A stretch of 64,000 bases of DNA from a virus (Duplodnaviria; Heunggongvirae; Uroviricota; Caudoviricetes), in the IMG/VR virus record IMGVR_UViG_3300029852_000006. One strand, written 5' to 3'. Position numbers and translations under genes: made by a program. How positions within the stretch are numbered: the first letter of the stretch is position 1; every line of letters starts with the position of its first letter. Shown in pieces: positions 18,015 to 32,338 of the stretch. The notes under the pieces are model-generated. The model was not told where the DNA came from. It searched no databases and saw nothing but the letters and a program-made list of their open reading frames with translations.

Positions 18015-19151
18015 ATGAAAATCGTCAACACCGGCATCAAGTACCAGATCTACAATGATTCCCTTCGCACCTTCGATTTCCTGCCCGCCGCCACCTACTG
18101 CGTCCGTTTCTCCAAGCTCAGCGGCTTCTACCTGGAATCCCGCCCCAATATGCAGGTCAACGAAACGGTCTATGGCCCGCATGAATCCAAGGTCGAAAAA
18201 GTTATAGCGTCCTACAACGCTTTCCCGCGTTCTCTTGGCGTCATCCTCAGCGGCGCAAAAGGTATCGGCAAGTCCATGTTTGCCCGCCTGCTCTCCACCC
18301 GCGCCATCTCTGCCGGCTTGCCCGTCCTCATTGTCGATGAAGCCATCCCCGGCATCGCCTCCTACCTCGAATCCATCGACCAGGAAGTCATGATCCTCTT
18401 TGATGAATTCGATAAAACCTTCGCTCACCCCTCCGATGATGATAAAACCGATCCTCAGTCCACCATGCTCTCCCTGTTCGATGGCACCTCCAACGGCAAG
18501 CGCCTCTTCGTTGTCACCTGCAATGATCTCAAAGGTCTCAATGATTTCCTTGTCAACCGTCCCGGCCGCTTCCACTACCACTTCCGCTTCGATTACCCCA
18601 CCGCCGATGAAATCCGCACCTACATGCAGGATAAGCTCAAGCCGGAATATTATGACCAGATCGATGCCGTCATCGGTTTTGCCGGTCGCGTTGACCTCAA
18701 TTATGACTGCCTGCGTTCCATCTCCTTTGAACTCAACACCGGCCTGCCTTTCACGGAAGCCATCAAGGATCTGAACATTGTCAACCTCAACGCTGAGCGC
18801 TATAACATCACCATGAAATTCGCAAACGGTATTGTCTATACCGCCAGCAATGTCCGCCGTGATCTCTTTGACCCCTCCTCGGAAGAATACGTTCGCTTCT
18901 TTAACAAAAACGGCGATTTTATCTTCGAAGTCACCTACAACAATGATTCCGTTCAGTTCGATAAAACCTCCGGTACTCCCTTTGTTGAAGGCAAGGACCT
19001 CACATTTGAATACCGCCACATCTCCGATGATGAACTCTCTGACCCGGATGAAAAGGCTTGCTATGACGCCATCACCCAGATCAAATCCACCACTCCCGCC
19101 GCTCTCGCCTTCCGCCGCACTCGCTCCCGCGATATCCACTACGCCGTCTAA
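18015..19151 (+). CDS. AAA+ family ATPase
   Basis: Walker A 'GAKGIGKS', Walker B 'ILFDEFD', sensor/arginine region 'VVTCNDL...NRPGRFH'. Confidence 0.7.
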   Translation: MKIVNTGIKYQIYNDSLRTFDFLPAATYCVRFSKLSGFYLESRPNMQVNETVYGPHESKVEKVIASYNAFPRSLGVILSGAKGIGKSMFARLLSTRAISAGLPVLIVDEAIPGIASYLESIDQEVMILFDEFDKTFAHPSDDDKTDPQSTMLSLFDGTSNGKRLFVVTCNDLKGLNDFLVNRPGRFHYHFRFDYPTADEIRTYMQDKLKPEYYDQIDAVIGFAGRVDLNYDCLRSISFELNTGLPFTEAIKDLNIVNLNAERYNITMKFANGIVYTASNVRRDLFDPSSEEYVRFFNKNGDFIFEVTYNNDSVQFDKTSGTPFVEGKDLTFEYRHISDDELSDPDEKACYDAITQIKSTTPAALAFRRTRSRDIHYAV

Positions 19152-19163
19152 GGGGGTTGTCCC

Positions 19164-20147
19164 ATGTCCGCCACAAATCCGCTTTACGATGAAGAGCTTC
19201 ACTGCCGTCACTGCGCTTATCATGGCATCAAATGTAAGCGTGCCAATAACATCACTGTCAATCTTGTTTCGAATTGCGCCCATCTTCACTACGGTTCCTA
19301 TCAGGGCATTTGTTCTGATTTTGCTCCCAATCCCAATTACCCGTTCTACTTCAAAAACTGGACAAGCTTCCAGGATTATTTTGATCACGCCGCCCCGGAT
19401 ATCCCCCGTCCCAACCTGGCCGACCAAACTGCCGCCGCTGTTTTCTGTTTCAATGGCGATCGCAGCATTCTTTACTTTGTCAGCCAGAACGATTTTATCT
19501 TCGGCAACCTCTATCAGGATGGTAAGCTCCGCACCGTCTATCGCCAGGTCAAAACCAAAAACATTCATTCTTCGTCCGGCTATTCCTATCCAACCGAAGC
19601 CTGTGATTTCATTCCTCTGCCCCAAGGTGCATCCGTTCCGCTGGAAGCTGTCTTCACCACCCAGCCCGCCTATCCGCCTTTAATCTACACCCCGCCTCTT
19701 ACCCCGGAACAGGATTGTCCTTACCCCTATGATGAAACTTTTACCCCAAAAGTATGGGAAGGCAATGATTTCATGCCGCCGCCCACCGTCTGCCCCTGGG
19801 GTTCCAACGTCCACCGCTGGCTCTCTTATTTTGGCGAAGGCTACACCTCAGCAAAGGATGATTCTCCCCTCGATCTCTACTGTTCTCCGTCCGCTGGCAT
19901 CCGCCTGCAAGTTACTGGTCCCTACTTCTACTTAACGGAAACTCACCCCGGTGCCGAGCTTCTTTTTACCAACAATGAATCCCATCGCAACTTTCTGGCT
20001 CAAGCCTGCACTCTTGCCCACCGCGATATGCCCAGGGACCGTGCCCTGCAACTCCTCTCCCGCACAAAACCGGATTGCAAACTCTGGCAGATTTTGCGTG
20101 CTCACTGCCTGCCCCTTGCCCAGTCCGCCTATGATTTCACCCAATAA
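19164..20147 (+). CDS. hypothetical Cys-rich protein
   Basis: N-terminal CxxC...C.C cluster; IS-like element inserted immediately downstream of its stop. Confidence 0.5.
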   Translation: MSATNPLYDEELHCRHCAYHGIKCKRANNITVNLVSNCAHLHYGSYQGICSDFAPNPNYPFYFKNWTSFQDYFDHAAPDIPRPNLADQTAAAVFCFNGDRSILYFVSQNDFIFGNLYQDGKLRTVYRQVKTKNIHSSSGYSYPTEACDFIPLPQGASVPLEAVFTTQPAYPPLIYTPPLTPEQDCPYPYDETFTPKVWEGNDFMPPPTVCPWGSNVHRWLSYFGEGYTSAKDDSPLDLYCSPSAGIRLQVTGPYFYLTETHPGAELLFTNNESHRNFLAQACTLAHRDMPRDRALQLLSRTKPDCKLWQILRAHCLPLAQSAYDFTQ

Positions 20148-20150
20148 ATC

Positions 20151-20367
20151 GGGTATTTGCAAAAATAGGTGGTTTGAATAAAACCATCTGTTTTTACAAA
20201 TACCACAGGCATTTGGATGTTTGTTGCGCCTATCGATTTTCCCAGTTGATAGCTCCGCACGAGTGGCATTGTCTCGTACAATACCGCTCACAGCAAACAC
20301 CCAGCCAAGGGAAACACAACCTCCTGTTTCAGCAGGAGAGACTTACAGTAAAAGGAGGGTAGCGTAT
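20151..20367 (+). ncRNA. candidate omega-RNA of IscB-1
   Basis: Conserved position of the guide/scaffold RNA immediately 5' of iscB; inferred from family knowledge, not folded here. Confidence 0.35.
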
Positions 20368-21906
20368 ATGCCTACTGTATATGTGTTAAACAAAGATGGT
20401 AAACCTTTGATGCCAACGACTCGCTGTATGCATGTGCGCCATCTCCTTAAGAATGGAAAAGCACGAGTCGTAAAATCAAAACCGTTTACTATCCAGTTGC
20501 TTTATGAAACTGATGATGTAGTTCAACCCCTATATTTGGGTATCGACCCTGGTAGGACCAACATCGGCGTTGCCGTTGTCAAAGCAGACGGGGCGGCGGT
20601 CTTTACTGCGCATCTTGAGACCCGCAATAAGGAAGTCCCTAAGCTGATGAAAAAGCGTAAGGAATCACGCTGCGCAAGACGCACCAACGGCAGACGCTGC
20701 CGCCGTCAGCGGAGAGCAAAAACCAACGGCACTATTTCTAAGAAGTGCGTAAAGCAAACCACTGCTCAAAATGGTAGTGTTAGTAAACGTGCAAAAGAAA
20801 TTGGCGTTATCAAGCGCCATCTTCCGGGTTGTGAGAAAGATGTACTTTGCATTGGTATCAAAAACAAAGAGGCAAAGTTCACCAATCGTGCAAGACCGGA
20901 AGGATGGCTTACGCCTACTGCAAATCAGTTGCTACAGACACACATCAACTTGGTGAAGAAAATTCAGAAGTTTCTTCCTATCAGTGATGTTGTGCTTGAA
21001 GTCAACAAATTTGCGTTCATGCAGCTTGACAACCCTAACATTCAGAAATGGCAGTATCAGCAAGGCCCACTCTACCAAAAAGGGAGCCTTGAAAATGCTG
21101 TTTCTGAAATGCAGGAACACCATTGCCTATTTTGTGAGAAGCCCATTGAACATTACCATCATGTAGTACCAAAATCCGAAAACGGTAGCAACACTATCGC
21201 CAATATTGTTGGTCTATGCACGGAGCATCACAATCTCGTTCATAAGGATGCTACCTGGCAAAAGAAACTCGCCAAAGAAAAAGTCGGACTCGTCAAAAAG
21301 TACAGTGCTTTGAGCGTATTGAATCAAATCATTCCGGCATTGACGAAAGAGATGAATTCTCTTTTTCCGAAGCATTTCTTTGTGACCAATGGTAAAAGTA
21401 CCTACGACTATCGTACAGCGCACGGTGTGAGTAAAGACCATTGGCTTGATGCTTATTGCATTGCCTGTTCTGTTTTACCCAACGATGTTTGTGATAGCAA
21501 TATAAACAGCCATGTGCCATACGAATTAAAGCAGTTCCGCCGCCATGATAGAAGAGTGCTACACAAAGCGAACATGAGCCGCGTGTACACACTCAATGGC
21601 AAAACAGTGGCAACGAATCGCCACAAGGCTATTAAACAGACTACCGACAGTTTGGAAGAGTTTCGTCAAAGCCATCCAGGTGATGTTTGCAAGCTCAAGG
21701 TGAAAGAGCATCATCCTGCATATAGAAACTTGAACCGTAACTATCCAGGAAGTGTATTTCTTGTTGACGGGCAAGTTCATGTGATGCAAGGAGTTAGCGG
21801 CTCACATAATGGCAAAGCAGATGGATATTACAATACGAATGGCAACGCATATCCATATTATAAATGTAAATTTGTTGTCAAAAACGAAGGAATTGTATTT
21901 GCATAA
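20368..21906 (+). CDS. iscB: IscB (OMEGA RNA-guided nuclease, Cas9 ancestor)
   Basis: N-terminal PLMP motif (GKPLMPT), RuvC-I 'LGIDPGRTNIGVAVV', HNH 'CLFCEKPIEHYHHVVPKSENGSNTIANIVGLCTEHH', RuvC-III 'HWLDAYCIA'. RBS AAAGGAGGG before ATG 20368. Confidence 0.8.
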   Translation: MPTVYVLNKDGKPLMPTTRCMHVRHLLKNGKARVVKSKPFTIQLLYETDDVVQPLYLGIDPGRTNIGVAVVKADGAAVFTAHLETRNKEVPKLMKKRKESRCARRTNGRRCRRQRRAKTNGTISKKCVKQTTAQNGSVSKRAKEIGVIKRHLPGCEKDVLCIGIKNKEAKFTNRARPEGWLTPTANQLLQTHINLVKKIQKFLPISDVVLEVNKFAFMQLDNPNIQKWQYQQGPLYQKGSLENAVSEMQEHHCLFCEKPIEHYHHVVPKSENGSNTIANIVGLCTEHHNLVHKDATWQKKLAKEKVGLVKKYSALSVLNQIIPALTKEMNSLFPKHFFVTNGKSTYDYRTAHGVSKDHWLDAYCIACSVLPNDVCDSNINSHVPYELKQFRRHDRRVLHKANMSRVYTLNGKTVATNRHKAIKQTTDSLEEFRQSHPGDVCKLKVKEHHPAYRNLNRNYPGSVFLVDGQVHVMQGVSGSHNGKADGYYNTNGNAYPYYKCKFVVKNEGIVFA

Positions 21907-21990
21907 ATTAGTAGACCACCTATTTTCAAATAGAAAATCACCTAATTTTGCAAATACCCAAATCCAACAAGGAGCTGACCCACTCCCTTC

Positions 21991-22197
21991 ATGTCTTCCC
22001 GTCTTGATCCTCTTGCCCGCAATTATTATCGCCGCAACAACTACCGGCAAACAGCCGGCTACCCCAAGCGTGAATGGACGACCGAGGAAATGAATCTTAT
22101 CCTCGTCCACTCCATCCCCGACCGTCAGCTTTCTGCCCGTCTTCAGCGCAGCGTCCAGTCCATCCAGGTCATGCGCTGCCGTCTTCGTTCCAAATAG
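21991..22197 (+). CDS. small putative DNA-binding protein (Myb/sigma-region-4-like helix pattern)
   Basis: 'WTTEEMNLIL...LSARLQRSVQSIQVMRCRL' helix-turn-helix-like pattern; weak. Confidence 0.3.
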   Translation: MSSRLDPLARNYYRRNNYRQTAGYPKREWTTEEMNLILVHSIPDRQLSARLQRSVQSIQVMRCRLRSK

Positions 22198-22231
22198 ATT
22201 TCAATTTTCAAAATCCAAGGAGGTAACAATT

Positions 22232-22615
22232 ATGTTAGGTGGTTTTGGTTTAATTCTCGGTATCGCTGGTTTGTTCGGTTCTGCCGCTGCAGCTGGTTAC
22301 ACATCCAATGATATTAAAGATTTTAATGCCCTCGGTGCCTATCAGCGCTCCATCTCAGAACCCACCCCGGAAGAAAAAGCCATCTATGAAAAATGGCGCG
22401 GCAAAACGTTTAATCAGCGGCATGAAGCTTTTTCAATGCTTGCAGGGGAACATCACGTTGATTGTGCCGATGCCAAACGTATCTGGTGGCAGCATATCTT
22501 CGAGGATGAAAAAGTTGAGGTCAATCCCAACTATCTCGACCGTATCAGCGGCGTGCATGATCGCGCTCTGACCTATAAGGCAGAACAAATCGGCAAAAAG
22601 CGCCGCGGCTGGTAA
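22232..22615 (+). CDS. small membrane-anchored protein
   Basis: N-terminal TM 'LGGFGLILGIAGLFGSAAAAG'; RBS AAGGAGG. Confidence 0.45.
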   Translation: MLGGFGLILGIAGLFGSAAAAGYTSNDIKDFNALGAYQRSISEPTPEEKAIYEKWRGKTFNQRHEAFSMLAGEHHVDCADAKRIWWQHIFEDEKVEVNPNYLDRISGVHDRALTYKAEQIGKKRRGW

Positions 22616-22630
22616 GGCAGGTGAATCCTT

Positions 22631-23041
22631 ATGCCCATCAAATTTCTTCTCCTCCTCTTTATGTTTTTCTCCCACCTCATTGCCGATTACAATCTTCAGG
22701 GCATCCTCGCCGATCTCAAGCAGCGTTTGTGGTGGGACCTCAAGTACTCCAAGGTGTTCGTTCAGGAACACTATCCTGTTGATTACATCACCGCCCTCAT
22801 CGAACATTCCTTCATGTGGTCAACCTGCATTACGATCCCGCTTCTGGTTTACTCTCTGTTCTTCCCCTATAACCCCCATGCAATCGCCTATTTCTGTTCC
22901 TCCATTCTTACTAATACCGGTTTTCATGCTATTATTGACCACCAAAAAGCAAACGAAGGTTCTATCTCTCTTACCACCGACCGGCTCCTTCATACCGGTC
23001 AAATCTTTTTTACCTGGCTGTTCTTCGTTTTGTCCTATTAA
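22631..23041 (+). CDS. integral membrane protein
   Basis: Three or more hydrophobic segments. Confidence 0.45.
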   Translation: MPIKFLLLLFMFFSHLIADYNLQGILADLKQRLWWDLKYSKVFVQEHYPVDYITALIEHSFMWSTCITIPLLVYSLFFPYNPHAIAYFCSSILTNTGFHAIIDHQKANEGSISLTTDRLLHTGQIFFTWLFFVLSY

Positions 23042-23105
23042 AAAAAATAAAAACCAGGGTCGCAAAACCCTGGCGTACATCCTCCCATTCAAAGGAGCGT
23101 TGCTT

Positions 23106-23672
23106 ATGAATTCTATCCCTCAGTCCTCCCAACAGCTTGTTGAACTGCTCAAATCCAAATCTCTTCACATCTCTGCTGCCGTAAGCTGCACCGCCGGCCT
23201 CTTCTCTTCCTCTCTCGCCAGCATCCCCGGCGCATCCAGCGTCATGGAGTATGGCTTTGTCACCTACTCTGCCGCTGCCAAAATGAACCTTGTCTCTGTC
23301 AAACCGGACACCATCAAGAATTACACTGTTTATTCCGGTCCTGTCGCCGCCCAAATGGCAATCGGCGCAGCTCAAAAATCTGGCGCAGAGCTTGGCGTTG
23401 GCATCACCGGCATTGCAGGTCCTCATGCAGAATCTCAGCCTGCCGGCACTGTCTATATCGCCGTGGCCAATTCGGAGATTCAAAATGTTTTCGTCCGCCG
23501 CTATCTTTTTCAGGATCACGACCGCAACATCATCCGCCAAAAAGCCGTCCTTGCTGCCATGGATCTTGTCACCGCCGTCATCACTTCCACCGGCCGCCAG
23601 CCCCACTTTGCCTGGTCTTGCAGCTCTGCTATCATCCATACCGTAACCGAATCCAAAACCCACTCATTCTAA
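23106..23672 (+). CDS. CinA C-terminal domain / PncC-like NMN deamidase
   Basis: 'ISAAVSCTAGL...SSVMEYGFVTYSAAAK...ELGVGITGIAGP...GTVYIA' matches the CinA-C/PncC family. RBS AAAGGAG before ATG 23106 (six-frame ORF extends upstream to 22680). Confidence 0.6.
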   Translation: MNSIPQSSQQLVELLKSKSLHISAAVSCTAGLFSSSLASIPGASSVMEYGFVTYSAAAKMNLVSVKPDTIKNYTVYSGPVAAQMAIGAAQKSGAELGVGITGIAGPHAESQPAGTVYIAVANSEIQNVFVRRYLFQDHDRNIIRQKAVLAAMDLVTAVITSTGRQPHFAWSCSSAIIHTVTESKTHSF

Positions 23673-23701
23673 TCACTATATAATAAGGTAGGTAATTTGC
23701 T

Positions 23702-23977
23702 ATGAATAGAGAACGCCGCTCCAGAATTCGCAGTCTTATCAAGGCTTTCAAGGATCTCTCCTCCACCATCCAGGACGATCTTTCCTCCCAGGTTCAAGAC
23801 CTGCATGATCTTGAGGAAGAAGCCTTCGATAATATGCCGGAGTCTATGCAGGATTCCGACCGCGGCATCGCCATGCAGGATGCCATGGATGAACTTCAGT
23901 CCGCTGTTGATCTCTGTTCCGAAGCCTCCGATGCCATTTATTCTATCGTGGATTCTTTACAGTCCGCTGCAGGATGA
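23702..23977 (+). CDS. small acidic hypothetical protein
   Basis: ORF with strongly acidic composition. Confidence 0.4.
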   Translation: MNRERRSRIRSLIKAFKDLSSTIQDDLSSQVQDLHDLEEEAFDNMPESMQDSDRGIAMQDAMDELQSAVDLCSEASDAIYSIVDSLQSAAG

Positions 23978-24195
23978 TTTTCCCTCCCCATCAGGTAGTC
24001 TACTGTGCAGTGCATCTCGTCCGCCAATACACCCAGCGCCCAAAACCCTGGGTAATTGATTCCGTTCTCCCACCCCATCACGGTGTGGGTTCCGCATCGC
24101 AGTCGCTCTGCCAGTTCCCGCTGGCTTATCCCGTTTGCCTTGCGCCACTCTCGTATAATTTGCCCAATCTCCATATTTTCGTGTCCTCTTTTCAA
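23938..24195 (-). CDS. XRE-family HTH transcriptional regulator (Cro/CI-like)
   Basis: 'IREWRKANGISQRELAERLRCGTHTVMGWENG' classic XRE HTH; divergent from + strand genes, sharing a promoter region (24196-24344) with an extended -10 TGTGCTATACT. Confidence 0.7.
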   Translation of the reverse strand: MKRGHENMEIGQIIREWRKANGISQRELAERLRCGTHTVMGWENGINYPGFWALGVLADEMHCTVDYLMGRENHPAADCKESTIE

Positions 24196-24344
24196 TGTTA
24201 GTACAGGTTTCCGTTCTAGTATCTTGAATTCCTTTGTGCTATACTCGCATTATACAACAAATGGTTGTCAATTACAACTATTGGGATTAAATTCTCACCA
24301 TTTTCCAGTCCATCTTTTCGGACGTCAATGAATAAGGAGGAGCC

Positions 24345-24680
24345 ATGAACACACAAACTATCACCCTTGCCCAGCTTGCCACCGCCTGCCAAAACGCAGC
24401 CTACATCAATGTCCACCTCTACACCCCGGCCATGTCTTCCCTCTCCACCTTCAAGCCAGATCAAATCCGCTTCATGTCCGCCTCCACCGGCGTCCCGCTG
24501 CTTCGCTTCCAAAGCAAAACCAGCACAATCGTCCTGCAGGCTCTCAGCATTCAGGCCGCCGTCACCCCCAGCACCCCCGGCAACGAGATCCCTTTTGGCC
24601 GTTGTACCTACTCCTACACCACTTATGATTTCGCCTTAGATGGTGTAAATTATTCCGTAAATATTTTTCAAAAATCTTGA
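24345..24680 (+). CDS. hypothetical protein (111 aa)
   Basis: RBS AAGGAGGAG. Confidence 0.45.
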   Translation: MNTQTITLAQLATACQNAAYINVHLYTPAMSSLSTFKPDQIRFMSASTGVPLLRFQSKTSTIVLQALSIQAAVTPSTPGNEIPFGRCTYSYTTYDFALDGVNYSVNIFQKS

Positions 24681-24764
24681 ATTTTACTGTTGACTTCTTG
24701 TAAGTAACGTGGTATGATAATATCACAAGGTAAGCAATAAATAAGTAAAGGAGGTTTCCCCGCT

Positions 24765-25184
24765 ATGTTCAAACCCAGTACCTCGGTTCCCAAATTTGGC
24801 GAAATCCGGCTGGGCTGTGCTCCGCAAGACCATGCCCTGCTCGGTACGCACAAGTACGTTGGTATTCATCCCTATCTGGTCGTCAGCAATGATGTTTATA
24901 ACAAATTCAGCGGCCAGTGTGATGTCATCCCCTTCACCACCAAGCGCTTTGCAAGTGCCAGTCCAACGCATGTTGATTACCCAGCCGGTTCCATCCGCGG
25001 CCTAACGCGGGATTCTACCCTCGTGGTCGAAGCGCGGGATACCCTCCTGAACTCTCAGCTTGGTGAACCGATTGCCCGCTTCTCGGATGAAAACTGGCAG
25101 CGGGCCAAAAAAGCTTTCCTCACTCAAAATCCATTCCTTACCCGCTGGATCATCCCGGAACCCCGCCCAACACCGGTTGCATAG
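24765..25184 (+). CDS. MazF/PemK/EndoA-family endoribonuclease toxin-like protein
   Basis: Aligns by eye to B. subtilis EndoA: 'GIHPYLVVSNDVYNKFSGQCDVIPFTT...SPTHVDYPAGSIRGLTRDSTLVVEARDT' vs 'RPVLVIQNDIGNRFSPTAIVAAIT...[27 protein letters not shown]'. Preceded by strong promoter TTGACT-17-TATGATAAT. Confidence 0.75.
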   Translation: MFKPSTSVPKFGEIRLGCAPQDHALLGTHKYVGIHPYLVVSNDVYNKFSGQCDVIPFTTKRFASASPTHVDYPAGSIRGLTRDSTLVVEARDTLLNSQLGEPIARFSDENWQRAKKAFLTQNPFLTRWIIPEPRPTPVA

Positions 25185-25247
25185 TTTTTCTTTGCATTTC
25201 CTGTCTACATACGTTATACTATAAATAACTAGAAAGGCAGGATCTGT

Positions 25248-26357
25248 ATGGGCAAAACTATTATCGATCGGTATAACAATGATTCTGTTCGTATTGATCG
25301 TTATCAGCAACTTATCTCTGATATTACCAATGCTTATATTACGGTCAATCACGGCAAAACCGTTCCGCAGTATATCCAAAAAATCATTCCCCGGCTTTCC
25401 TACACGCTCGAAACATATGAGCATCAGTACGGCACCCGGTTTGAATCCTTTTCCTATCAGCAGTACGCATCGTTTTATAAGCAGGCAATCATCGGCAACT
25501 CGGCAAGTGCAGTTATCAACCGCAACAAGCTGGTCCTTCTCTCCTGTTACCTGGATTACCTGGTTCTTCAAAACGTTATCACACTGGATCAGTCAACAGG
25601 TCATCCGTTCCGTCAGTTTCTTCAGATGTCACCGGCTGATAATGAGGACGATTCTCAAATTCCGTCCAAGCCATCCCTCACTACCGTTTCCAATCCCAGC
25701 AAACCCACTCTGCAGCAGTCCCTTGATTCCTATTCTCAGCAGATGCTCTTTTCTGATGAAGAATTTGAATCTCTGCTGGAAGCTATCTTTAATAACAGCG
25801 ATCTGGACTGTATGCCCCGTGCAATCTATACCCTTGCCTGGTGCGGTGTGGAGGTCAAAAACATTGCTCTTATCAAAAAAGCGGATGTCGATCTTACCCG
25901 TATGGTAATTTACGCCACCGAACAAAATCACCTCCCGCAGGATATTGTGATTTCTTCCTCTTTCTGCTGTATCAACCTTGAAAAAGCCATGCTTGCGCAA
26001 GGTATCCTGGTACCCAATCGTACCGGTATGCGTGAAGTATCGTTTTTTGGCCGCGATGATTATGTGATCCGCGGTGTAAAAGGCGCCAACAAGGCCGAAA
26101 CGCCGGACCCGGACGCCAGCGGTTTTTATATCGTCAATAACATCAACCGCGTCTATTCTCAGCGCCAAGAACAGCTCCCGGTGAACAATCCCTTCAAAAA
26201 CAAAAAAGTTCTCGTCAGCTCTTGTTATAAATCCGGCCGGTTCCTGCGGCTCTTCAAAACACAACAGCTGTCAGAAAAACTCTGGGGCGTTTATAGCAAT
26301 GATTTCGTTTACTCTTACAAAAAGTGGCTGTCTTACAAGCAGCTCAACTTAAAATAA
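25248..26357 (+). CDS. hypothetical protein; weak resemblance to tyrosine-recombinase N-terminal/core-binding region
   Basis: 'LAWCGVEVKNIALIKKADVDL' arm-like segment but no R..HxxR..Y catalytic motifs found. Confidence 0.4.
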   Translation: MGKTIIDRYNNDSVRIDRYQQLISDITNAYITVNHGKTVPQYIQKIIPRLSYTLETYEHQYGTRFESFSYQQYASFYKQAIIGNSASAVINRNKLVLLSCYLDYLVLQNVITLDQSTGHPFRQFLQMSPADNEDDSQIPSKPSLTTVSNPSKPTLQQSLDSYSQQMLFSDEEFESLLEAIFNNSDLDCMPRAIYTLAWCGVEVKNIALIKKADVDLTRMVIYATEQNHLPQDIVISSSFCCINLEKAMLAQGILVPNRTGMREVSFFGRDDYVIRGVKGANKAETPDPDASGFYIVNNINRVYSQRQEQLPVNNPFKNKKVLVSSCYKSGRFLRLFKTQQLSEKLWGVYSNDFVYSYKKWLSYKQLNLK

Positions 26358-26406
26358 TTTTTCTCATCGTGGGGCATCGTCGTCCCACATTTTTACGGGC
26401 GCTATA

Positions 26407-26424
26407 TTACAAGTTTTCGCAAAC
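26407..26424 (+). promoter_or_regulatory. conserved motif TTACAAGTTTTCGCAAAC (copy 2 of 3)
   Basis: Identical 18-mer to 3156-3173, 24 nt upstream of RBS of gene 26448. Confidence 0.45.
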
Positions 26425-26447
26425 ACTATTTTCAGGAGGTTTTTCCC

Positions 26448-27098
26448 ATGACTACCGAATCCATGTCCATTCACCGCGCTCTGGTGGAACTCAAAACTAT
26501 TGATTCCCGGATCATCAAAAAGATCGATTCCGCCAAGTTCTGTGTCGCCGCCAAAGCCAAAGCTACCAAGCTCGGTGCAATCACGGTGGATGAATTCAAA
26601 ACATCTGCTCAGGCCAGTTATGATTCCGCTATGGATCTCATCAATCGCCGCAACGCCATCAAGGCCGCTGTCTCAAAGTCCAACGCGGTCACAGAAATTT
26701 CAGTGAACAATAAAACTTATACCGTGGCCGAAGCCATCTCTCTCAAGCAGCACGGCATGGAATACCTGGACTACCTGCGCAGCCATATTCAGGCCCAGTA
26801 TTCAAACGAAACCTCTCAGATCACCTCCGCCAATCTCCGTGTGGAAGCCAAGGCCGATGATATGGTCAAATCGATCTGCGGCGGCGATTCCAAAACCAAG
26901 GATGCCGATCCTGAAACTGTCGCCAAGATCCGCAACACCTATCTTGAACAGAACTCCATGGAGCTGGTCGATGGCCTCACCAAAGGCTGTACTCAAATCA
27001 TTGAAGACCTGCAGTCCCAGATCAATTCCTTCAACAACGAAATTGATTCCGCCCTCTCTGTTTCCAACGCCATTACCCAGATCACATTCAGCTACTAA
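26448..27098 (+). CDS. hypothetical protein (216 aa)
   Basis: RBS AGGAGG. Confidence 0.5.
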   Translation: MTTESMSIHRALVELKTIDSRIIKKIDSAKFCVAAKAKATKLGAITVDEFKTSAQASYDSAMDLINRRNAIKAAVSKSNAVTEISVNNKTYTVAEAISLKQHGMEYLDYLRSHIQAQYSNETSQITSANLRVEAKADDMVKSICGGDSKTKDADPETVAKIRNTYLEQNSMELVDGLTKGCTQIIEDLQSQINSFNNEIDSALSVSNAITQITFSY

Positions 27099-27503
27099 GC
27101 TGTTTTGATACCATTTGCCTGTATACCGAAAGCGTCAAACCACAAGCCGCTTTGTCCGCTGTGGAATAATGACAAAGTTAAAACTATAAACACCTGTTCC
27201 ACGATCATTAGAATTATGATAAAAATATTGGTTCATTCTTTGTGGCTGCATTTTTGTATGCCCAGCCCATCAGAATGAATGTTTTGCCCGGAAAGTTTAA
27301 TGCTTAACGCTTAAACCTCAACGCTCAAATTTCAAACCTTATTTTTCATCAAAGTTTATTCTTCAACCCCCAAGGCTCAAGGCTCTATTAAATCCTTGGC
27401 GCAAGGTCATGTGCATGGCTGTGTCGGCACCTCGCTGTCCTCAAGGCTGGTACATGGGCAACGTGCGAAGGCGGTAGCACGTTAAAACAATCCGCCCTGG
27501 TAA

Positions 27504-27578
27504 GCGGCTGTCGTACAACGGCCAGTATACAAGCCTTCCAAGCTTGGGATGGGGGTTCGACACCCCTCAGCCGCTCCA
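27504..27578 (+). tRNA. tRNA-Gly (anticodon UCC)
   Basis: Hand-folded cloverleaf: acceptor gcggctg/cagccgc, D-stem gtac/gtat, anticodon stem caagc/gcttg with loop cuUCCaa, T-loop ttcgaca, encoded 3' CCA. Confidence 0.65.
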
Positions 27579-27670
27579 CAACAGAATAACTTCATTTTGG
27601 TTTCACACCGTAAAGTCCCGTCACACCGGCGCGGCCGTGGATTGGCGGCACCGGGTAGCAAACGGCTCCA

Positions 27671-27693
27671 CACCTCGGTCATATCCAGTGGTC
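27671..27693 (+). repeat. conserved hairpin motif, partial copy (loop CGGTCATATCC)
   Basis: Loop conserved; lacks the GAATTTG tail. Confidence 0.4.
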
Positions 27694-27857
27694 AGCGGCT
27701 TTTTCGAAGTTCTTGCTTCCATTCAGTTCAAACAGTTTGTCGAGCTGTCTGCGGCTGAAAATGTTCTGTTCGTATTTCCAAATGAACTGCGAAAAGCTTA
27801 TGCCCTCTTTGTTATCAAACGCAAGCCACTTGTCGTAAATGGCGTTGTTACAATTTT

Positions 27858-27890
27858 CCTGTGACTGCGTATATCCAGGTGTTTGAATTT
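27858..27890 (+). repeat. conserved hairpin motif copy 4 (...gcgTATATCCaggtgtttGAATTTG)
   Basis: Shares ATATCC loop core and GAATTTG tail; ~85 nt upstream of tRNA-Thr. Confidence 0.5.
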
Positions 27891-27973
27891 GAATCTATGT
27901 ACCCGTCACCAGTACAAATATATGTACCATATCGCGGGGTGTCGTCTCCATCATGAATTTATTCTGTTATTAT

Positions 27974-28050
27974 GCCAGGTTAGCTCAATTAGGTAGAGCA
28001 GCCGTTTTGTAAGCGGCAGGTTGTGGGTTCAAGTCCCCCACCTGGCTCCA
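27974..28050 (+). tRNA. tRNA-Thr (anticodon UGU)
   Basis: Acceptor gccaggt/acctggc, D-stem gctc/gagc, anticodon stem gccgt/gcggc with loop uuUGUaa, T-loop ttcaagt, encoded CCA; one T-stem mismatch. Confidence 0.65.
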
Positions 28051-28835
28051 CCGTTCCGGTTCATACCGGGGCGTCATGGCTCCCAGCGCCGGTCAAGTCT
28101 GGGGTACGCGGAGGGCAATCTCTCCGTCAAATCAGTGGGTGAAATAAACTCGCTGGACGCTTTATTCTGGTCTAACCCCCAGATGCTAAAGCAATGGCAG
28201 AGCAGCGGCACACTGCCTCAAAACTATTCCGTTGGCACCTTCGGGCAGGTAACAGTCCACCTTGCCGGGTTCAAAGCCGTCTTTACGGCAGTCTTAACAC
28301 GCAGCACCCAGCATGAAACCGATCGGCAGAACTTTTGGTCAGCTTCCAAACATCTTTCTGGCCAATGACAAGATGGGAAAGTCCTCCGGGCTGCGGCGAG
28401 TAATAAGCAGCGGTAAGTACCTATCGACATATGGTGAGACGGCTAAGCACGTCACTGGTACCTCAAGGGTGGGATGCCCTTTCACACGGAGCAATACTCA
28501 AGCTGGTTTAAGAGGCGTCCCTGCTAAGGACGTAGCCAACAACCCCGCCTAAACCGGTCCTCCGGTTATAGATGGGATTTACGGGGAAACTCGTAAGTCC
28601 GGTTGGTTAGCCTAAGTCTGCTGCTCCGGCAACAGGAAACTACGTTGTGTACCAATAATATAGGCACCTTACTCATGCTCCACAAGTGGTAAGCTCTGCG
28701 GACGGCTCGTTAAACATCTCTGAGGGTAGGAGAAGTGCGAACGTCATGTCGAAAGGCTAAAACGGTATAACAACATTGGCGATGTGGACCACAGGGCGCA
28801 AGCCCTGACTTATTGATTTATTATTTACGAAAGGG
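28051..28835 (+). ncRNA. long ORF-free structured region between tRNA-Thr and iscB; expected location of the IscB-2 omega-RNA
   Basis: 785 nt with only short ORFs, GC-rich with many local hairpins; IscB omega-RNAs are encoded immediately 5' of iscB (family knowledge). Confidence 0.35.
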
Positions 28836-30242
28836 GTGCCTTGCATGAGCACTTGTGCTTGTGTTTTCAGTAAAAGCGGCAAACGCCTGATGCCGACCAT
28901 CCGTCTTGGCAAGGTGCGCCATCTTCTGAAAGACGGAAAGGCAAAAATTATTAAGCATCATCCGTTTACCATCCAGTTGCTGTATGACAGCGAAACGAAT
29001 ATTCAACCCATCGAAATCTGCGAGGATGTGGGTTACAACTACATTGGCATCAGCGTGAAAAGCCAATCTCACGAATATGTGTCTGTACAATATGATACAT
29101 TGCAGGATGAGAAAGACTGCCACGATAGTTGTCGTAAGATGCGCCGCATCCGTAGAAACAGGTTACGTTACCGCAAGCCGCGTTTCGACAATCGTAAGCG
29201 TAATAAAGGTTGGCTTGCGCCCTCTCTTGAACATAAGAAAGAACTCAATGTTAATGTCATCAAGATGTATTGCAAGGTAGTTCCTATTACGCATGTAACT
29301 GTTGAAGTTGGTTCTTTCGACACAATGCTTGTAAAAGCCATCCAAGAGGGTAAAGCTATACCGGAAGGCGCAGATTATCAAAAAGGCCCTCGCTACAATT
29401 TGGCCACACTACGTGAAGCGGTTTTTTATCGCGATAAATATACCTGCCAAGTTTGCGGGCGCAAGGCTAATGAAGGTGCAATTCTGCATGTGCATCACAT
29501 GTTCTACTGGAAGGGTCGTCACGGCAATAGTCTCAGCGAACTTCTTACTGTGTGTGAAAAATGCCATACACCGGCTAACCACCAACAAGGCGGCAAGCTC
29601 TACAGATTTGGTGAAAATATAAAGTTCGCCAATCTTTCCGGTGCGGCATTTATGAATACTGTGCGCTGGCAAATCGTCAATGAACTTTACACTGCTTTTG
29701 GCAAGCTGTTCGTCACATTCACTTATGGTGCGATGACCAAGGAAAAGCGGATTGCCTTTCATCTTGAAAAGTGTCATAACAACGATGCGTATGCAATGGG
29801 GAACTTTCATCCAGTTGACCGCTGCGCGTTTGAACATTATAAAAAGGTGAAACGCAATAACCGCATTCTCGAAAAATTTCATGACTCCCAGTACATTGAC
29901 ATCCGCACCGGCAAAGTGGCTAACGGCAGAAGCCTCTTTAACGGTAGAATCAACCGCAGCCATAAAAAGAATTCCGAGAACCTGCACAAGTATCGTGGGA
30001 AAAGGACTCGTAAAGGCTACCGTGCTCTACGCCGCAAAAAGGTAGCCCTCAATCCCGGTGACTTGGTTTCTCTTAACGGAGAAATTCTTGTTGTCCATAG
30101 CACTCATGCCGGAAAGAATGGTTATGTAGGCGTAGAATTCAAAGCTCCATCAAAAAGCGGCAAAAAGTCTGCCAGTCTCAAAAAACTAAAAATTGTTAAA
30201 ACATCAAACTCCATGCGCTCTGCGTGGACTAAAGTATCTTAA
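28836..30242 (+). CDS. iscB: IscB (OMEGA RNA-guided nuclease), second copy
   Basis: PLMP-like 'GKRLMPT', RuvC-I-like 'DVGYNYIGISV', HNH 'CQVCGRK...HVHHMFYWKGRHGN...CEKCH', RuvC-III 'HNNDAYAMGNF'; basic C-terminus. Confidence 0.8.
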   Translation: MPCMSTCACVFSKSGKRLMPTIRLGKVRHLLKDGKAKIIKHHPFTIQLLYDSETNIQPIEICEDVGYNYIGISVKSQSHEYVSVQYDTLQDEKDCHDSCRKMRRIRRNRLRYRKPRFDNRKRNKGWLAPSLEHKKELNVNVIKMYCKVVPITHVTVEVGSFDTMLVKAIQEGKAIPEGADYQKGPRYNLATLREAVFYRDKYTCQVCGRKANEGAILHVHHMFYWKGRHGNSLSELLTVCEKCHTPANHQQGGKLYRFGENIKFANLSGAAFMNTVRWQIVNELYTAFGKLFVTFTYGAMTKEKRIAFHLEKCHNNDAYAMGNFHPVDRCAFEHYKKVKRNNRILEKFHDSQYIDIRTGKVANGRSLFNGRINRSHKKNSENLHKYRGKRTRKGYRALRRKKVALNPGDLVSLNGEILVVHSTHAGKNGYVGVEFKAPSKSGKKSASLKKLKIVKTSNSMRSAWTKVS

Positions 30243-30336
30243 AAACGTTTGTACTTACCAAGTATACCTCAAATATACTCTTGGCCAGCGCATTCCTCAC
30301 CGCCTAAGTCGCAGGTGACTATAGACGGTATAACAT

Positions 30337-30429
30337 GCTCCCATATCTCAATGGTAGAGAAGCGGCCTTATAGCCCGCCTAGCACCAGATTAGTGCGTAA
30401 TCCCTGTTCAAGTCAGGGTGGGGGTACCA
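30337..30429 (+). tRNA. type-II (long variable arm) tRNA with atypical anticodon arm; identity uncertain
   Basis: Acceptor gctccca/tgggggt (two G-U), D-stem tctc/gaga, variable arm gcac/gtgc, T-arm ccctg-ttcaagt-caggg, 3' CCA. Anticodon stem has only 4 clean pairs around the sequence ccttatagc. Confidence 0.45.
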
Positions 30430-30580
30430 GCCTTACGGACTTGCCGTAAGGGATTGAAACCGTTTTTTGACGGTTTATCGGTGATAACATAAAAACCACC
30501 GTTTCGGTATGGCAGCACCGATCAATGGCCAAACCTGCCACCCAATCATCCCGCTGGTAAAACCGTGCTCTAGCACCGCA

Positions 30581-30602
30581 CTCCGGTCATATCCGAGCGC
30601 TT
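30581..30602 (+). repeat. conserved hairpin motif, partial copy (stem ctc/gag, loop CGGTCATATCC)
   Basis: Loop identical to copies 1/5. Confidence 0.4.
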
Positions 30603-30755
30603 ATCCAAGTCGGCTGGGTTCTGTGATAGACAATCACTTCAACTGCGGTGGGATGATTTTTTTTCTTTGGTGTCTCGCCTTTCACGGCGTTTCATATTCC
30701 CGGCAAAGTCCCTGGTACCTACAGGCACCGCCTTCACGGCCTGCCCCGCATACCG

Positions 30756-30786
30756 CTTCCCGGTCATACCCGGAAGATTGAATTTC
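30756..30786 (+). repeat. conserved hairpin motif copy 5 (stem cttcc/ggaag, loop CGGTCATACCC, then attGAATTTc)
   Basis: Compensatory stem; sits 6 nt upstream of the start of gene 30792. Confidence 0.55.
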
Positions 30787-30791
30787 CTAAG

Positions 30792-31115
30792 ATGATGTCA
30801 TCATACAAGTTCTCGCTATGCCGGCTCGAACTTGTCGTTTGCCGGGATTTTATTTTTGATTCTATTCAGGGGGAATTTATCTTGTTATATACAAAACAGG
30901 AAATTCAATCTTTCTCTGATGAATTTATTTATTCTCGTATGAAAGAACTATTATCCTCTCCTCTTTGTCGTGACATTCCTGAATCTGAACAAGTGGACTG
31001 TTTGTTTTGTCTTGAACGTTATGACTGTGCAAATTCTATCCCGCCAGAATTTTTTCAGCTTAATGATGAATTTCAACGGAGAAGATATATAAATCGAAGG
31101 AGATCCGTCAAATGA
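30792..31115 (+). CDS. hypothetical protein (107 aa)
   Basis: ORF with Cys pairs. Confidence 0.4.
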   Translation: MMSSYKFSLCRLELVVCRDFIFDSIQGEFILLYTKQEIQSFSDEFIYSRMKELLSSPLCRDIPESEQVDCLFCLERYDCANSIPPEFFQLNDEFQRRRYINRRRSVK

Positions 31116-31651
31116 AATCCCGTCCCACTCCTGCCAACCTTTATACCACCCGCCGCACCGGCCTTTCCCATTATAAAGATCCTGAATCCAAAACCCTTTT
31201 CTCTCAGGGCAAATACCCCACTAAACTAACCTATCAGGATCTTCCCGGCTGTTTTCTTTCCGGCACTTACTATGGCGCAAGGGGTTATCTCCGCACGGAT
31301 TCAATCAAAGGTCTCTGGTATAAGCCCTGTTATCATACCAATCACATGTTTAAGGACGATTTCCTTTACATCTCTTATCAACATCCCACTTCATCTTTCC
31401 CTTTATTAGATATATACCTCTCCTCCCCTGATTCCAGGCTTTATGATGAAGTTATTTTCGGCGGCATCATCCCCCGTTTCCTCCGCTTCGCAGAGCAGTA
31501 TTCCCAGTATGATTGCACTTCCATCTGGTCACAGATCGAAGAAAAACGTGCCTGGTTCAAAGCCAATTATCCTACAGACTATCAGCATGAAGTTTTAATC
31601 CCCGATGCCGAAACGTTTTCCGGCCACTATCACAAAATTAAAATTCCCTGA
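31112..31651 (+). CDS. hypothetical protein (179 aa)
   Basis: Coupled start ATGA; RBS GGAG. Confidence 0.45.
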   Translation: MKSRPTPANLYTTRRTGLSHYKDPESKTLFSQGKYPTKLTYQDLPGCFLSGTYYGARGYLRTDSIKGLWYKPCYHTNHMFKDDFLYISYQHPTSSFPLLDIYLSSPDSRLYDEVIFGGIIPRFLRFAEQYSQYDCTSIWSQIEEKRAWFKANYPTDYQHEVLIPDAETFSGHYHKIKIP

Positions 31652-31663
31652 ATCCTCATTCAC

Positions 31664-32338
31664 TGAATTCTTATTCAGCAAAAAAGCCATAAAGCATCCT
31701 TCGAAGTCCCGTCCAATGATGGCAAAGGTCTCACGGTCGATATGACTTTTACCTACCGTTTTGATCCCGATCAGGTCGCTGATACCTTTACCCGTTTCAA
31801 GGGTCAGTCCGGCAAGGACGTCAAAGAGATTTTCATCAAGCCCAACATCATGTCCTGGACCAAAGAGGTCACGGCCAAGTATTCCGTTATTGATCTGCTT
31901 GGCGACCAGCGTGCTTCCCTCAACTCGGAACTCACCGCCTACCTCAAGGATAAATTCGAGCCTTACGGCATCATCATTGAATCCGTTTCTCTGATCAATA
32001 TCGACCCCGATGACGAAACCCGTGCAGCCGTTCAGAAAAAAGTCAACGCTCAGCAGGATCTGGAGCTGGCAAAGATCGAGCAGCAGACCGCCAATGTCAA
32101 TGCCGAAAAAGAAAAAGAAGTCGCTATCACGAAAGCCAACCAGGAAAAAGAAACCGCTCAGATCAACGCCGAAGCCAAACTGATCGAAGCCCAGGCTCAG
32201 GCCGATGCCAACCGTCTGATCTCTCAGTCCCTCACCCCGGAACTGATCCAGCAGCAGATGTATGAAAAATGGAATGGTCAGCTTCCCACTGTCCAGTCCG
32301 GCTCCGATACCCCCATTATTGTTGATACCACCAACTAA
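31664..32338 (+). pseudogene. 5'-truncated SPFH/band-7 (HflK/C-like) domain gene
   Basis: SPFH beta-strand region 'EVPSNDGKGLTVDMTFTYRFDPDQV' and coiled-coil tail present in frame. Frame opens only 12 nt after previous gene, with no TM/N-terminal part and no start codon before ATG 31742. Confidence 0.5.

Follow-up and report, generated by a model that had tools for sequence, protein, structure and literature searches.

What kind of unit is a stretch of 3.7 kb in a phage genome that holds several RNA genes and a single protein gene? This question is raised by positions 27099-30791 (hereafter the island) of IMG/VR record IMGVR_UViG_3300029852_000006. The window, i.e. the whole stretch of DNA that was analysed, comprises 64,000 nt and is a part of the genome of a phage of approximately 145 kb from the human gut. 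The island contains tRNA genes and the second of two iscB genes of the window, which encode nucleases that work with a guiding omega-RNA. A preliminary description had left two possibilities, either the insertion of an IscB element beside a phage tRNA cluster or a larger module centred on RNA. The analysis described here makes it very probable that the island is a phage tRNA cluster, in which an IscB element sits within the variable arm of a tRNA-Ser(GCU) gene, has lost its far end and persists as a passenger. The element is an IscB/omega-RNA insertion sequence of a known kind, unusual in its insertion point and broken at one end, and not a new RNA module.

To delimit the element, the 785-nt region upstream of iscB was compared with 29 related loci, and the presence of the element was scored in 27 genomes, namely the window and 26 relatives. 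Twelve of the 27 carry the element, all with one shared junction, while the other 15 have an intact allele. In the IscB-less genomes the match to the window breaks off exactly at 28535 and starts again at 30333, 30426 or 30530, so that the comparison with IscB-less relatives, which had been proposed in the preliminary description, places the insertion at 28535-30332. The element thus comprises 1,798 bp with the omega-RNA and iscB. It replaces 143 bp of phage DNA consisting of the 3' half of the tRNA-Ser gene and a 97-nt spacer, while the following ACAT (30333-30336) and the tRNA behind it are phage sequence. The empty site reads GGAGCAATACTCAAGCTGGTTTAAGAGGCGTCCCTGCTAAGGACGTA, directly followed by GGGTGGTTTATCCCGCCGCGTGGGTTCGAATCCCACTTGCTCCGCCA, and the intact gene continues beyond the break point as GGGTGGTTTATCCCGCC...CTTGCTCCGCCA. 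Of the loci scanned with ARAGORN, the seven without IscB all gave tRNA-Ser(GCU), whereas the six with IscB did not. Hence, the earlier view of an element beside the tRNA cluster was right about the insertion, but the element lies inside a fourth tRNA gene, which had escaped notice because only its first 47 nt remain in the window. The T arm, acceptor strand and CCA of the empty-site relatives might also be taken for the 3' end of a transfer-messenger RNA (tmRNA). This was ruled out by ARAGORN and by folding by hand, which yielded a plain tRNA-Ser(GCU).

The same comparison bears on the 785 nt upstream of iscB, which had been described as one structured region two to three times longer than usual omega-RNAs. 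The region is composed of four different parts: a phage-native spacer, the 5' part of tRNA-Ser(GCU), the omega-RNA, and the ribosome-binding site and leader of iscB (Table 1). The match to the HEARO model (RF02033, gathering score 83) is of normal size and begins exactly at the break point; the omega-RNA ends with a terminator-like hairpin (28792-28807). Its position upstream of iscB and its 5' start at the element boundary are those of IS200/IS605-type elements. Compared to the family, the first stem carries a compensatory change (GCCAAC/GUUGGU instead of GUCAAC/GUUGAU). A single extended omega-RNA of 785 nt, or an island that moves as one RNA-centred module, can nevertheless be envisaged, since the parts are contiguous, lie on the same strand and fold slightly better than shuffled sequences (z = -1.7 for 28051-28487, a marginal difference). 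However, all IscB-less relatives keep 28051-28534 unchanged and run straight on into the rest of tRNA-Ser, which refutes the extended RNA, and in canonical copies of the family unrelated flanking DNA starts immediately before GTCAAC. Moreover, the tRNAs and spacers of the island vary independently of IscB, and the 93-nt tRNA downstream is not cargo of the element as it is present in IscB-less relatives. Both versions of this idea can practically be dismissed. Permissive Rfam searches with 19000-31500 and with one empty-site relative revealed only tRNAs and HEARO and otherwise matches at chance level, e.g. RAGATH-27 with 27 bits at a gathering score of 76.

Equally negligible is the probability that the spacers conceal a protein gene, for instance one in a non-standard code. 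Positions 28021-28368 are free of stop codons (115 amino acids), and 27688-27870 contain a reverse frame of 62 codons. Among the open reading frames (ORFs) of the spacers that were compared with Pfam or PHROGs, none passed a curated cut-off or gave a convincing E value; the best hit (E = 0.0046) was to a PHROG of unknown function, and a 90-amino-acid ORF at 30509-30781 gave no convincing family match either. Relatives show 1-nt insertions or deletions inside 28021-28552, including those within ORFs of 28051-28535. The reverse frame possesses no start codon and is entirely missing from some relatives, and the neighbouring genes translate normally under the standard code. The indels together with the lack of protein-family matches indicate that the spacers are noncoding. 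Thus, iscB is the sole protein gene of the island, as had been stated, and neither of the findings that might have overturned the preliminary description was made: ARAGORN and Rfam accept the tRNAs, and no missed gene in the 785 nt is supported.

To which family the element belongs became clear from its homologs. A search with the IscB protein yielded 80 loci with identities of 70-100%, many of them in other, larger contigs and some of these with two copies. At approximately 16 unrelated sites the family has canonical ends: flanking DNA borders on GTCAACAACCCCGC, and the other end runs from GCCTAAG to TATAGACGGTGTACCCTGCGCACAAATTTT, which is followed by ATGRA. The core of these ends is GTCAAC at the omega-RNA side and AAATTTT with adjacent ATGRA at the far side, as expected for a multicopy mobile family. 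At the tRNA site, where the window and at least ten relatives carry a copy, the left end is precise, GGACGTA being followed by G(T/C)CAAC. The right junctions of these copies are identical and truncated: TATAGACGGT(A/G)TA is joined to ACATGC. While the far-end hairpin itself (30301-30328) was retained, the last approximately 17 nt of the family and ATGRA are missing, so that one complete end remains. Neither the flank of the far end (ACATGC) nor the sequence that follows the guide match in the intact allele (GGGTG) conforms to the family motif. Since the copies at the tRNA site form a monophyletic clade in the IscB tree, they go back to a single insertion event. Two complete copies of the same family occur elsewhere in the same phage (L025:3727-5631 and L010:503-2320; window equivalents approximately 22072 and 22193) and have canonical ends followed by ATGGAC and ATAAAT, respectively. 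As these two copies occupy other sites, the family entered the phage lineage at least three times.

The nuclease itself is intact. The catalytic motifs of IscB are present (RuvC Asp61, HNH with HVHH...CEKCH, RuvC-III HNNDAY), and in alignments with solved IscB structures (E values of 2e-33 to 6e-32) the DxG, HNH and H..D motifs coincide. Within the clade at the tRNA site, the ratio of nonsynonymous to synonymous substitutions (dN/dS) is 0.07-0.15 at synonymous divergences (dS) of up to 0.56. From a dN/dS of about 0.1, IscB looks functional. On the other hand, the copies are mosaic. Between the genes of the window and of L074, the identity is 100% over nt 526-1398 and only 79-91% over nt 1-525; for some blocks, copies at other sites are the closer match. 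The low dN/dS may therefore have been imported via gene conversion from other copies, and this mosaicism weakens purifying selection as an argument that IscB has a function in the phage. The clade has only three residues of its own, and none of them lies in the C-terminal domain, which reads the target-adjacent motif. A shift in motif specificity was rejected on these grounds.

What the nuclease could be directed against depends on its guide. In the GstIscB system of G. stearothermophilus, the transposon end marks the boundary of the omega-RNA, and the guide is derived from the flank; the experimentally demonstrated cleavage motif TTCAT is identical to the motif beside the native element (PMC10055086). 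The flanking motif ATGRA of the family studied here is the reverse complement of TYCAT, ATGAA corresponding to the TTCAT of GstIscB. Because of the element boundary of the family and the established biology of IscB, the guide of the window copy is predicted to be the 16 nt at 28519-28534 (CCCTGCTAAGGACGTA), i.e. the last 16 nt of the tRNA-Ser fragment within the anticodon arm. All 16 positions match the intact tRNA-Ser allele, but the adjoining bases are GGGTGG and not ATGRA. Scans of viral and genome collections with the exact 16-mer gave no match that was followed by ATGRA.

Such a guide raises the possibility of RNA-guided homing, in which IscB would cut the intact allele of co-infecting IscB-less phages and repair would copy the element into it. 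The element is polymorphic at one locus, as homing systems are, its guide fits the intact allele exactly, and the element-bearing allele would be protected by the scaffold DNA that follows the match. One junction is found with many different flanks: the presence of IscB shows no linkage to a haplotype marker approximately 170 nt upstream or to variants farther out in the flanks, including those beside the leader RNA described below. The tRNA with the anticodon UAU lies 4 nt from the junction in all 12 carriers, as co-conversion would produce. An intact ORF with low dN/dS, a maintained omega-RNA stem, the lack of a usable transposase end and the precedent of SegB (PMC2330249) point in the same direction. 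By contrast, the intact allele has GGGTGG where approximately 16 family insertions have ATGRA, and in GstIscB the cleavage motif is that of the native flank. The three clade-specific residues all lie outside the motif-reading domain, and mosaicism accounts for the low dN/dS without any function in the phage. Parts of the element are only 79% identical while its flanks share 95-98%, and since the element has diverged so much further, a recent sweep did not take place. The linkage pattern can be explained by ordinary phage recombination as well as by homing. That an end-less IscB was kept by the phage through a guide hard-wired to the anticodon arm of tRNA-Ser, as a homing or competition nuclease tolerating a motif other than that of the family, is therefore considered unlikely. 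A passenger is the most likely state of the element, homing being less so. Should homing be true nonetheless, the locus would provide the first natural counterpart of T4 SegB that relies on an RNA guide.

Much less probable still is a recruitment of IscB by the phage, whether as a nuclease against tRNA-Ser(GCU) genes of its host or of phages that compete with it, or as a DNA binder guided by RNA. The exact 16-mer does occur in tRNA-Ser(GCU) of many bacteria, among them metagenome-assembled genomes (MAGs) of Erysipelotrichaceae and Bacilli with the most similar tRNA-Ser, and the copy is conserved although it is immobilised. However, the bacterial genes continue with TAGGAC, GATCGG or GGTCGG and never with ATGRA, the element is absent from about half of the close relatives, and the intact catalytic residues speak against a role restricted to binding.

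The following scenario would account for the passenger. A non-autonomous IscB element of the IS200/IS605 type probably entered the variable arm of tRNA-Ser, whereby the omega-RNA end was joined precisely and the far end was broken. The breakage cost the element its terminal approximately 17 nt together with the adjacent target motif, and the phage 143 bp of its DNA. TnpA would no longer be able to move this copy, which might since then have passed from phage to phage by ordinary recombination, with related copies renewing its sequence via gene conversion. The omega-RNA would presumably be transcribed by read-through from the tRNA operon. Loss of tRNA-Ser(GCU) might be cheap for the phage, because AGY codons make up only 20% of its serine codons. 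A crude motif search for TnpA revealed no HUH...YxxxQ signature in any frame of the 64-kb window. Several points weigh against this scenario. An insertion by TnpA would be expected beside ATGRA, yet the tRNA has GGGTG, and the scenario does not explain how a precise joint at the omega-RNA side arose together with a deletion at the far side. Strong purifying selection and a compensatory stem change found only in the phage copies are unexpected for a nuclease without a target; gene conversion from unsampled copies may account for this signature. A canonical insertion with a later deletion was considered as a different origin, the candidate sites being ATGAA in the lost spacer and the sequence before tRNA(CAU), where CCCCAC is followed by ATGGAAC. 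It was discarded because it would require an implausible deletion ending exactly at the first base of the element.

Table 1. Features of the island and their positions in the window
Feature	Position	Strand	Basis or remark
Sigma-70-like promoter, TAAACA-16-TAGAAT	27187..27214	+	Promoter scan
Conserved structured leader RNA, 113 nt	27390..27502	+	Ends just before tRNA-Gly
tRNA-Gly(UCC)	27504..27578	+	ARAGORN; Rfam tRNA 57.4 bits
One hairpin-motif copy (5-bp stem, loop CGGTYATAYCC, then TTTGAATTTG), split by an insertion	27671..27891	+	
tRNA-Thr(UGU)	27974..28050	+	ARAGORN; Rfam tRNA 63.3 bits
Phage-native noncoding spacer, 437 nt	28051..28487	+	Kept in all relatives, with or without IscB
5' fragment of tRNA-Ser(GCU), 47 nt: acceptor strand, D arm, anticodon arm, first two variable-region bases	28488..28534	+	
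Omega-RNA (HEARO) scaffold	28535..28807	+	RF02033 full-model match 28535-28794, 83.4 bits, E = 2.5e-15
iscB, intact, 465 amino acids	28845..30242 (alternative start 28836)	+	Pfam RRXRR 6.9e-45 and HNH; phrog_119 6.7e-54
Far-end subterminal hairpin (CGCCTAAG..TATAGACGG), then truncated terminus ..GGTATA	30301..30332	+	Compared with approximately 16 independent canonical insertions
93-nt tRNA, anticodon UAU, phage-native	30337..30429	+	ARAGORN; Rfam tRNA 43.1 bits; also in IscB-less relatives
Noncoding spacer	30430..30791	+	Hairpins 30430-30452 and 30457-30476 just after the tRNA; motif copies 30579-30597 and 30756-30785

The other parts of the island largely agree with what had been reported for them. 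The three complete tRNA genes are in place, all with scores above the gathering score of 29 of the Rfam tRNA model, and the lengths of the intervals (405, 395, 785 and 362 nt) were reproduced. Only the classification of the 93-nt tRNA as type II has to be modified. Its variable region is indeed long (23 nt with a 4-bp stem and a 7-nt loop). By contrast, the D arm, as read from the sequence, resembles class I (4-bp stem, 7-nt loop), and the anticodon UAU corresponds to the isoleucine codon AUA and not to a codon for Leu, Ser or Tyr. Because of this D arm, the molecule resembles a tRNA for AUA whose variable loop has taken up an insertion, and not one of the Leu/Ser/Tyr type. Among the relatives, pair 3:70 occurs as U.G, C-G and U-A, and the anticodon stem is either ACGGU/ACCGU, which pairs perfectly, or GCGGC/CCCGC with a C.C mismatch at 31:39, the version of the window. 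In six relatives the same slot holds a conventional tRNA(CAU) of 76-77 nt (e.g. L002:12236-12312), so that close relatives have either the long-arm tRNA(UAU) or tRNA(CAU) at one position. The codons read by the tRNAs of the phage are rare in its own genes (AUA 2% of Ile, GGA 6% of Gly, ACA 10% of Thr codons), which does not fit a simple codon supplementation. The phage tRNA-Ser(GCU) is closest to tRNA-Ser genes of Erysipelotrichaceae and Bacilli MAGs (L218, L238 and others), with which it shares the acceptor sequence GGAGCAA and an identical anticodon arm. This resemblance hints at Erysipelotrichaceae/Bacilli as the host group.

Upstream of tRNA-Gly, the -35/-10 pattern of the predicted promoter is kept in distant relatives, in which the neighbouring protein is approximately 44% identical, and the site probably drives transcription of the tRNA operon. 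Downstream of it and ahead of the leader RNA, A/C-rich periodic repeats of 14 nt (AACGCTYAAAYYTC) extend from 27292 to 27340; similar iteron-like repeats occur in distant relatives. The leader has changed much less than the neighbouring proteins, as it shows a nucleotide identity of approximately 77% in the phages with the 44% identical neighbouring protein. The proposed fold consists of two hairpins, one of them with a small inner hairpin, and a subsequent H-type pseudoknot. In the latter, stem S1 is formed by 27463-27468 and 27478-27483, and the loop GGCGG pairs with CCGCC at 27493-27497 (ACGUGC-GAA-GGCGG-UA-GCACGU-N9-CCGCC). Over ten distinct sequences 98.8% of the proposed pairs are maintained and four pairs are changed on both sides, but the viral and metagenome scans revealed the leader in only four lineages, and the covariation statistics are therefore thin. 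Several G.U pairs make the fold specific to this strand. No match to the leader was found in Rfam.

Spacers of roughly 400 nt are located before and between the tRNA genes. Only the first one is conserved in distant relatives; for spacers 2-4 and tRNA(UAU), no match beyond close relatives was detected, and a search of cultured-phage DNA with 26000-32000 yielded matches confined to the tRNA genes. In the spacer upstream of the tRNA-Ser fragment, a hairpin (28335-28342/28358-28365) exists in two haplotypes, TTGGTCAG/CTGGCCAA and CCAGTTGG/CCAACTGG, which differ at five of the eight stem pairs with all differences compensated. An inversion as the origin of these haplotypes was ruled out.

The motif CGGTCATAYCC starts at 27676, 30584 and 30761 of the island, and the whole window contains seven hits with at most one mismatch where 1.5 are expected. 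The two copies assigned to the approximately 360 nt behind the 93-nt tRNA were found as described. For the 395-nt spacer before tRNA-Thr, the motif sequence is present as well, but the two supposed copies are the halves of one hairpin motif separated by a 183-nt insertion. This insertion (27688-27870) splits the motif within its loop, is flanked by the repeat ATATCCAG and exists in a single copy; in the relatives L022 and L027, which lack it, the motif is intact. Neither another copy of the insertion nor a protein-family match to it was detected. In the window, the hairpin repeat is intergenic and on the + strand (7160, 8746, 11736, 27676 with 27871, 30584 and 30761). Its loop CGGTYATAYCC is conserved while the 5-bp stem varies but remains complementary (CTCTT/AAGAG, CCCTC/GAGGG, CTTCC/GGAAG, CACCT/AGGTG), and TTYGAATTTG usually follows. 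The repeat could be a promoter, a processing site or the site of a regulator.

Beyond the island, the window contains a tail fibre gene (26448-27098, phrog_1491) and genes for a DNA polymerase, a helicase and NrdD, and dozens of near-identical contigs exist in IMG/VR and human-gut metagenomes. The GC skew of the + strand is strongly negative over the whole window (about -0.2 to -0.35), and codons ending with C are heavily preferred. Only in the two IscB elements and at 48-50 kb (nrdD) is the skew near zero. The skew of approximately 0 in both elements, compared to about -0.2 in the phage backbone, is consistent with a foreign origin of the elements. The first IscB (20151-21959) belongs to another kind of element with terminal inverted repeats of 14 bp (GGGTATTTGCAAAA/TTTTGCAAATACCC) and A/T-rich target duplications of 8 bp, which were observed at four independent sites (AAATCCAA, ATTATCAC, TTTATATG and ATTAAAAG); in the window the left duplication lacks 3 nt. 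A HEARO match upstream of this gene was not detected. The element is absent from at least nine relatives, and its protein is approximately 100% identical among 13 phage contigs. Because of the inverted repeats and target duplications, a mobilisation by a DDE-type transposase is suggested, which would be unusual for IscB.

The T4 tRNA cluster co-transcribes small stable RNAs called species 1 and 2. Like them, the leader of the window is a conserved structured RNA of approximately 110 nt encoded together with phage tRNAs. Unlike them, it precedes the first tRNA and has a pseudoknot, and neither a sequence nor an Rfam relationship was found. The IscB element of the island shares its main properties with ISC/ISGst5-type elements, namely an IscB with RRXRR, split RuvC and HNH, a HEARO omega-RNA directly upstream that begins at the transposon end and takes its guide from the flank, subterminal hairpins at both ends, a TYCAT-type motif and, judged from the crude motif search of the window, no tnpA in cis. 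It differs from them by its missing far terminus and flanking motif, the replacement of 143 bp of the target, and its location in a phage, inside a tRNA gene and beside a sequence that departs from the family motif. The IscB-like "HNH endonucleases" of cultured phages (phrog_119; Clostridium phage c-st, Ralstonia and Staphylococcus phages) belong to the same protein family but are only 29-39% identical. SegB is a free-standing homing endonuclease within the tRNA gene cluster of T4, for which homing has been demonstrated (PMC2330249). As for SegB, the nuclease gene of the island resides in a phage tRNA cluster, is polymorphic among related phages and has a predicted recognition sequence in the tRNA gene region of nuclease-less genomes. 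SegB is, however, a protein-only GIY-YIG enzyme, whereas recognition would here be mediated by a predicted RNA guide whose required adjacent motif is absent.

Recognising known parts in what looked like a giant omega-RNA or an "RNA module" prevents a false lead. Besides, there are small leads that can be tested: the pseudoknot of the leader, the long-arm class-I tRNA alternating with tRNA(CAU), and an IscB associated with inverted repeats and 8-bp duplications. The mosaic structure of the copies suggests that IscB elements at different genomic sites exchange sequences, possibly including copies of the host. The locus represents a clean natural case of an IscB element in a phage: matching empty sites are available for comparison, the predicted guide stems from the anticodon arm of a tRNA, and one transposon end is broken. 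It is a convenient system for asking whether IscB can home between co-infecting phages without a transposase, and how strictly the adjacent motif limits such homing.

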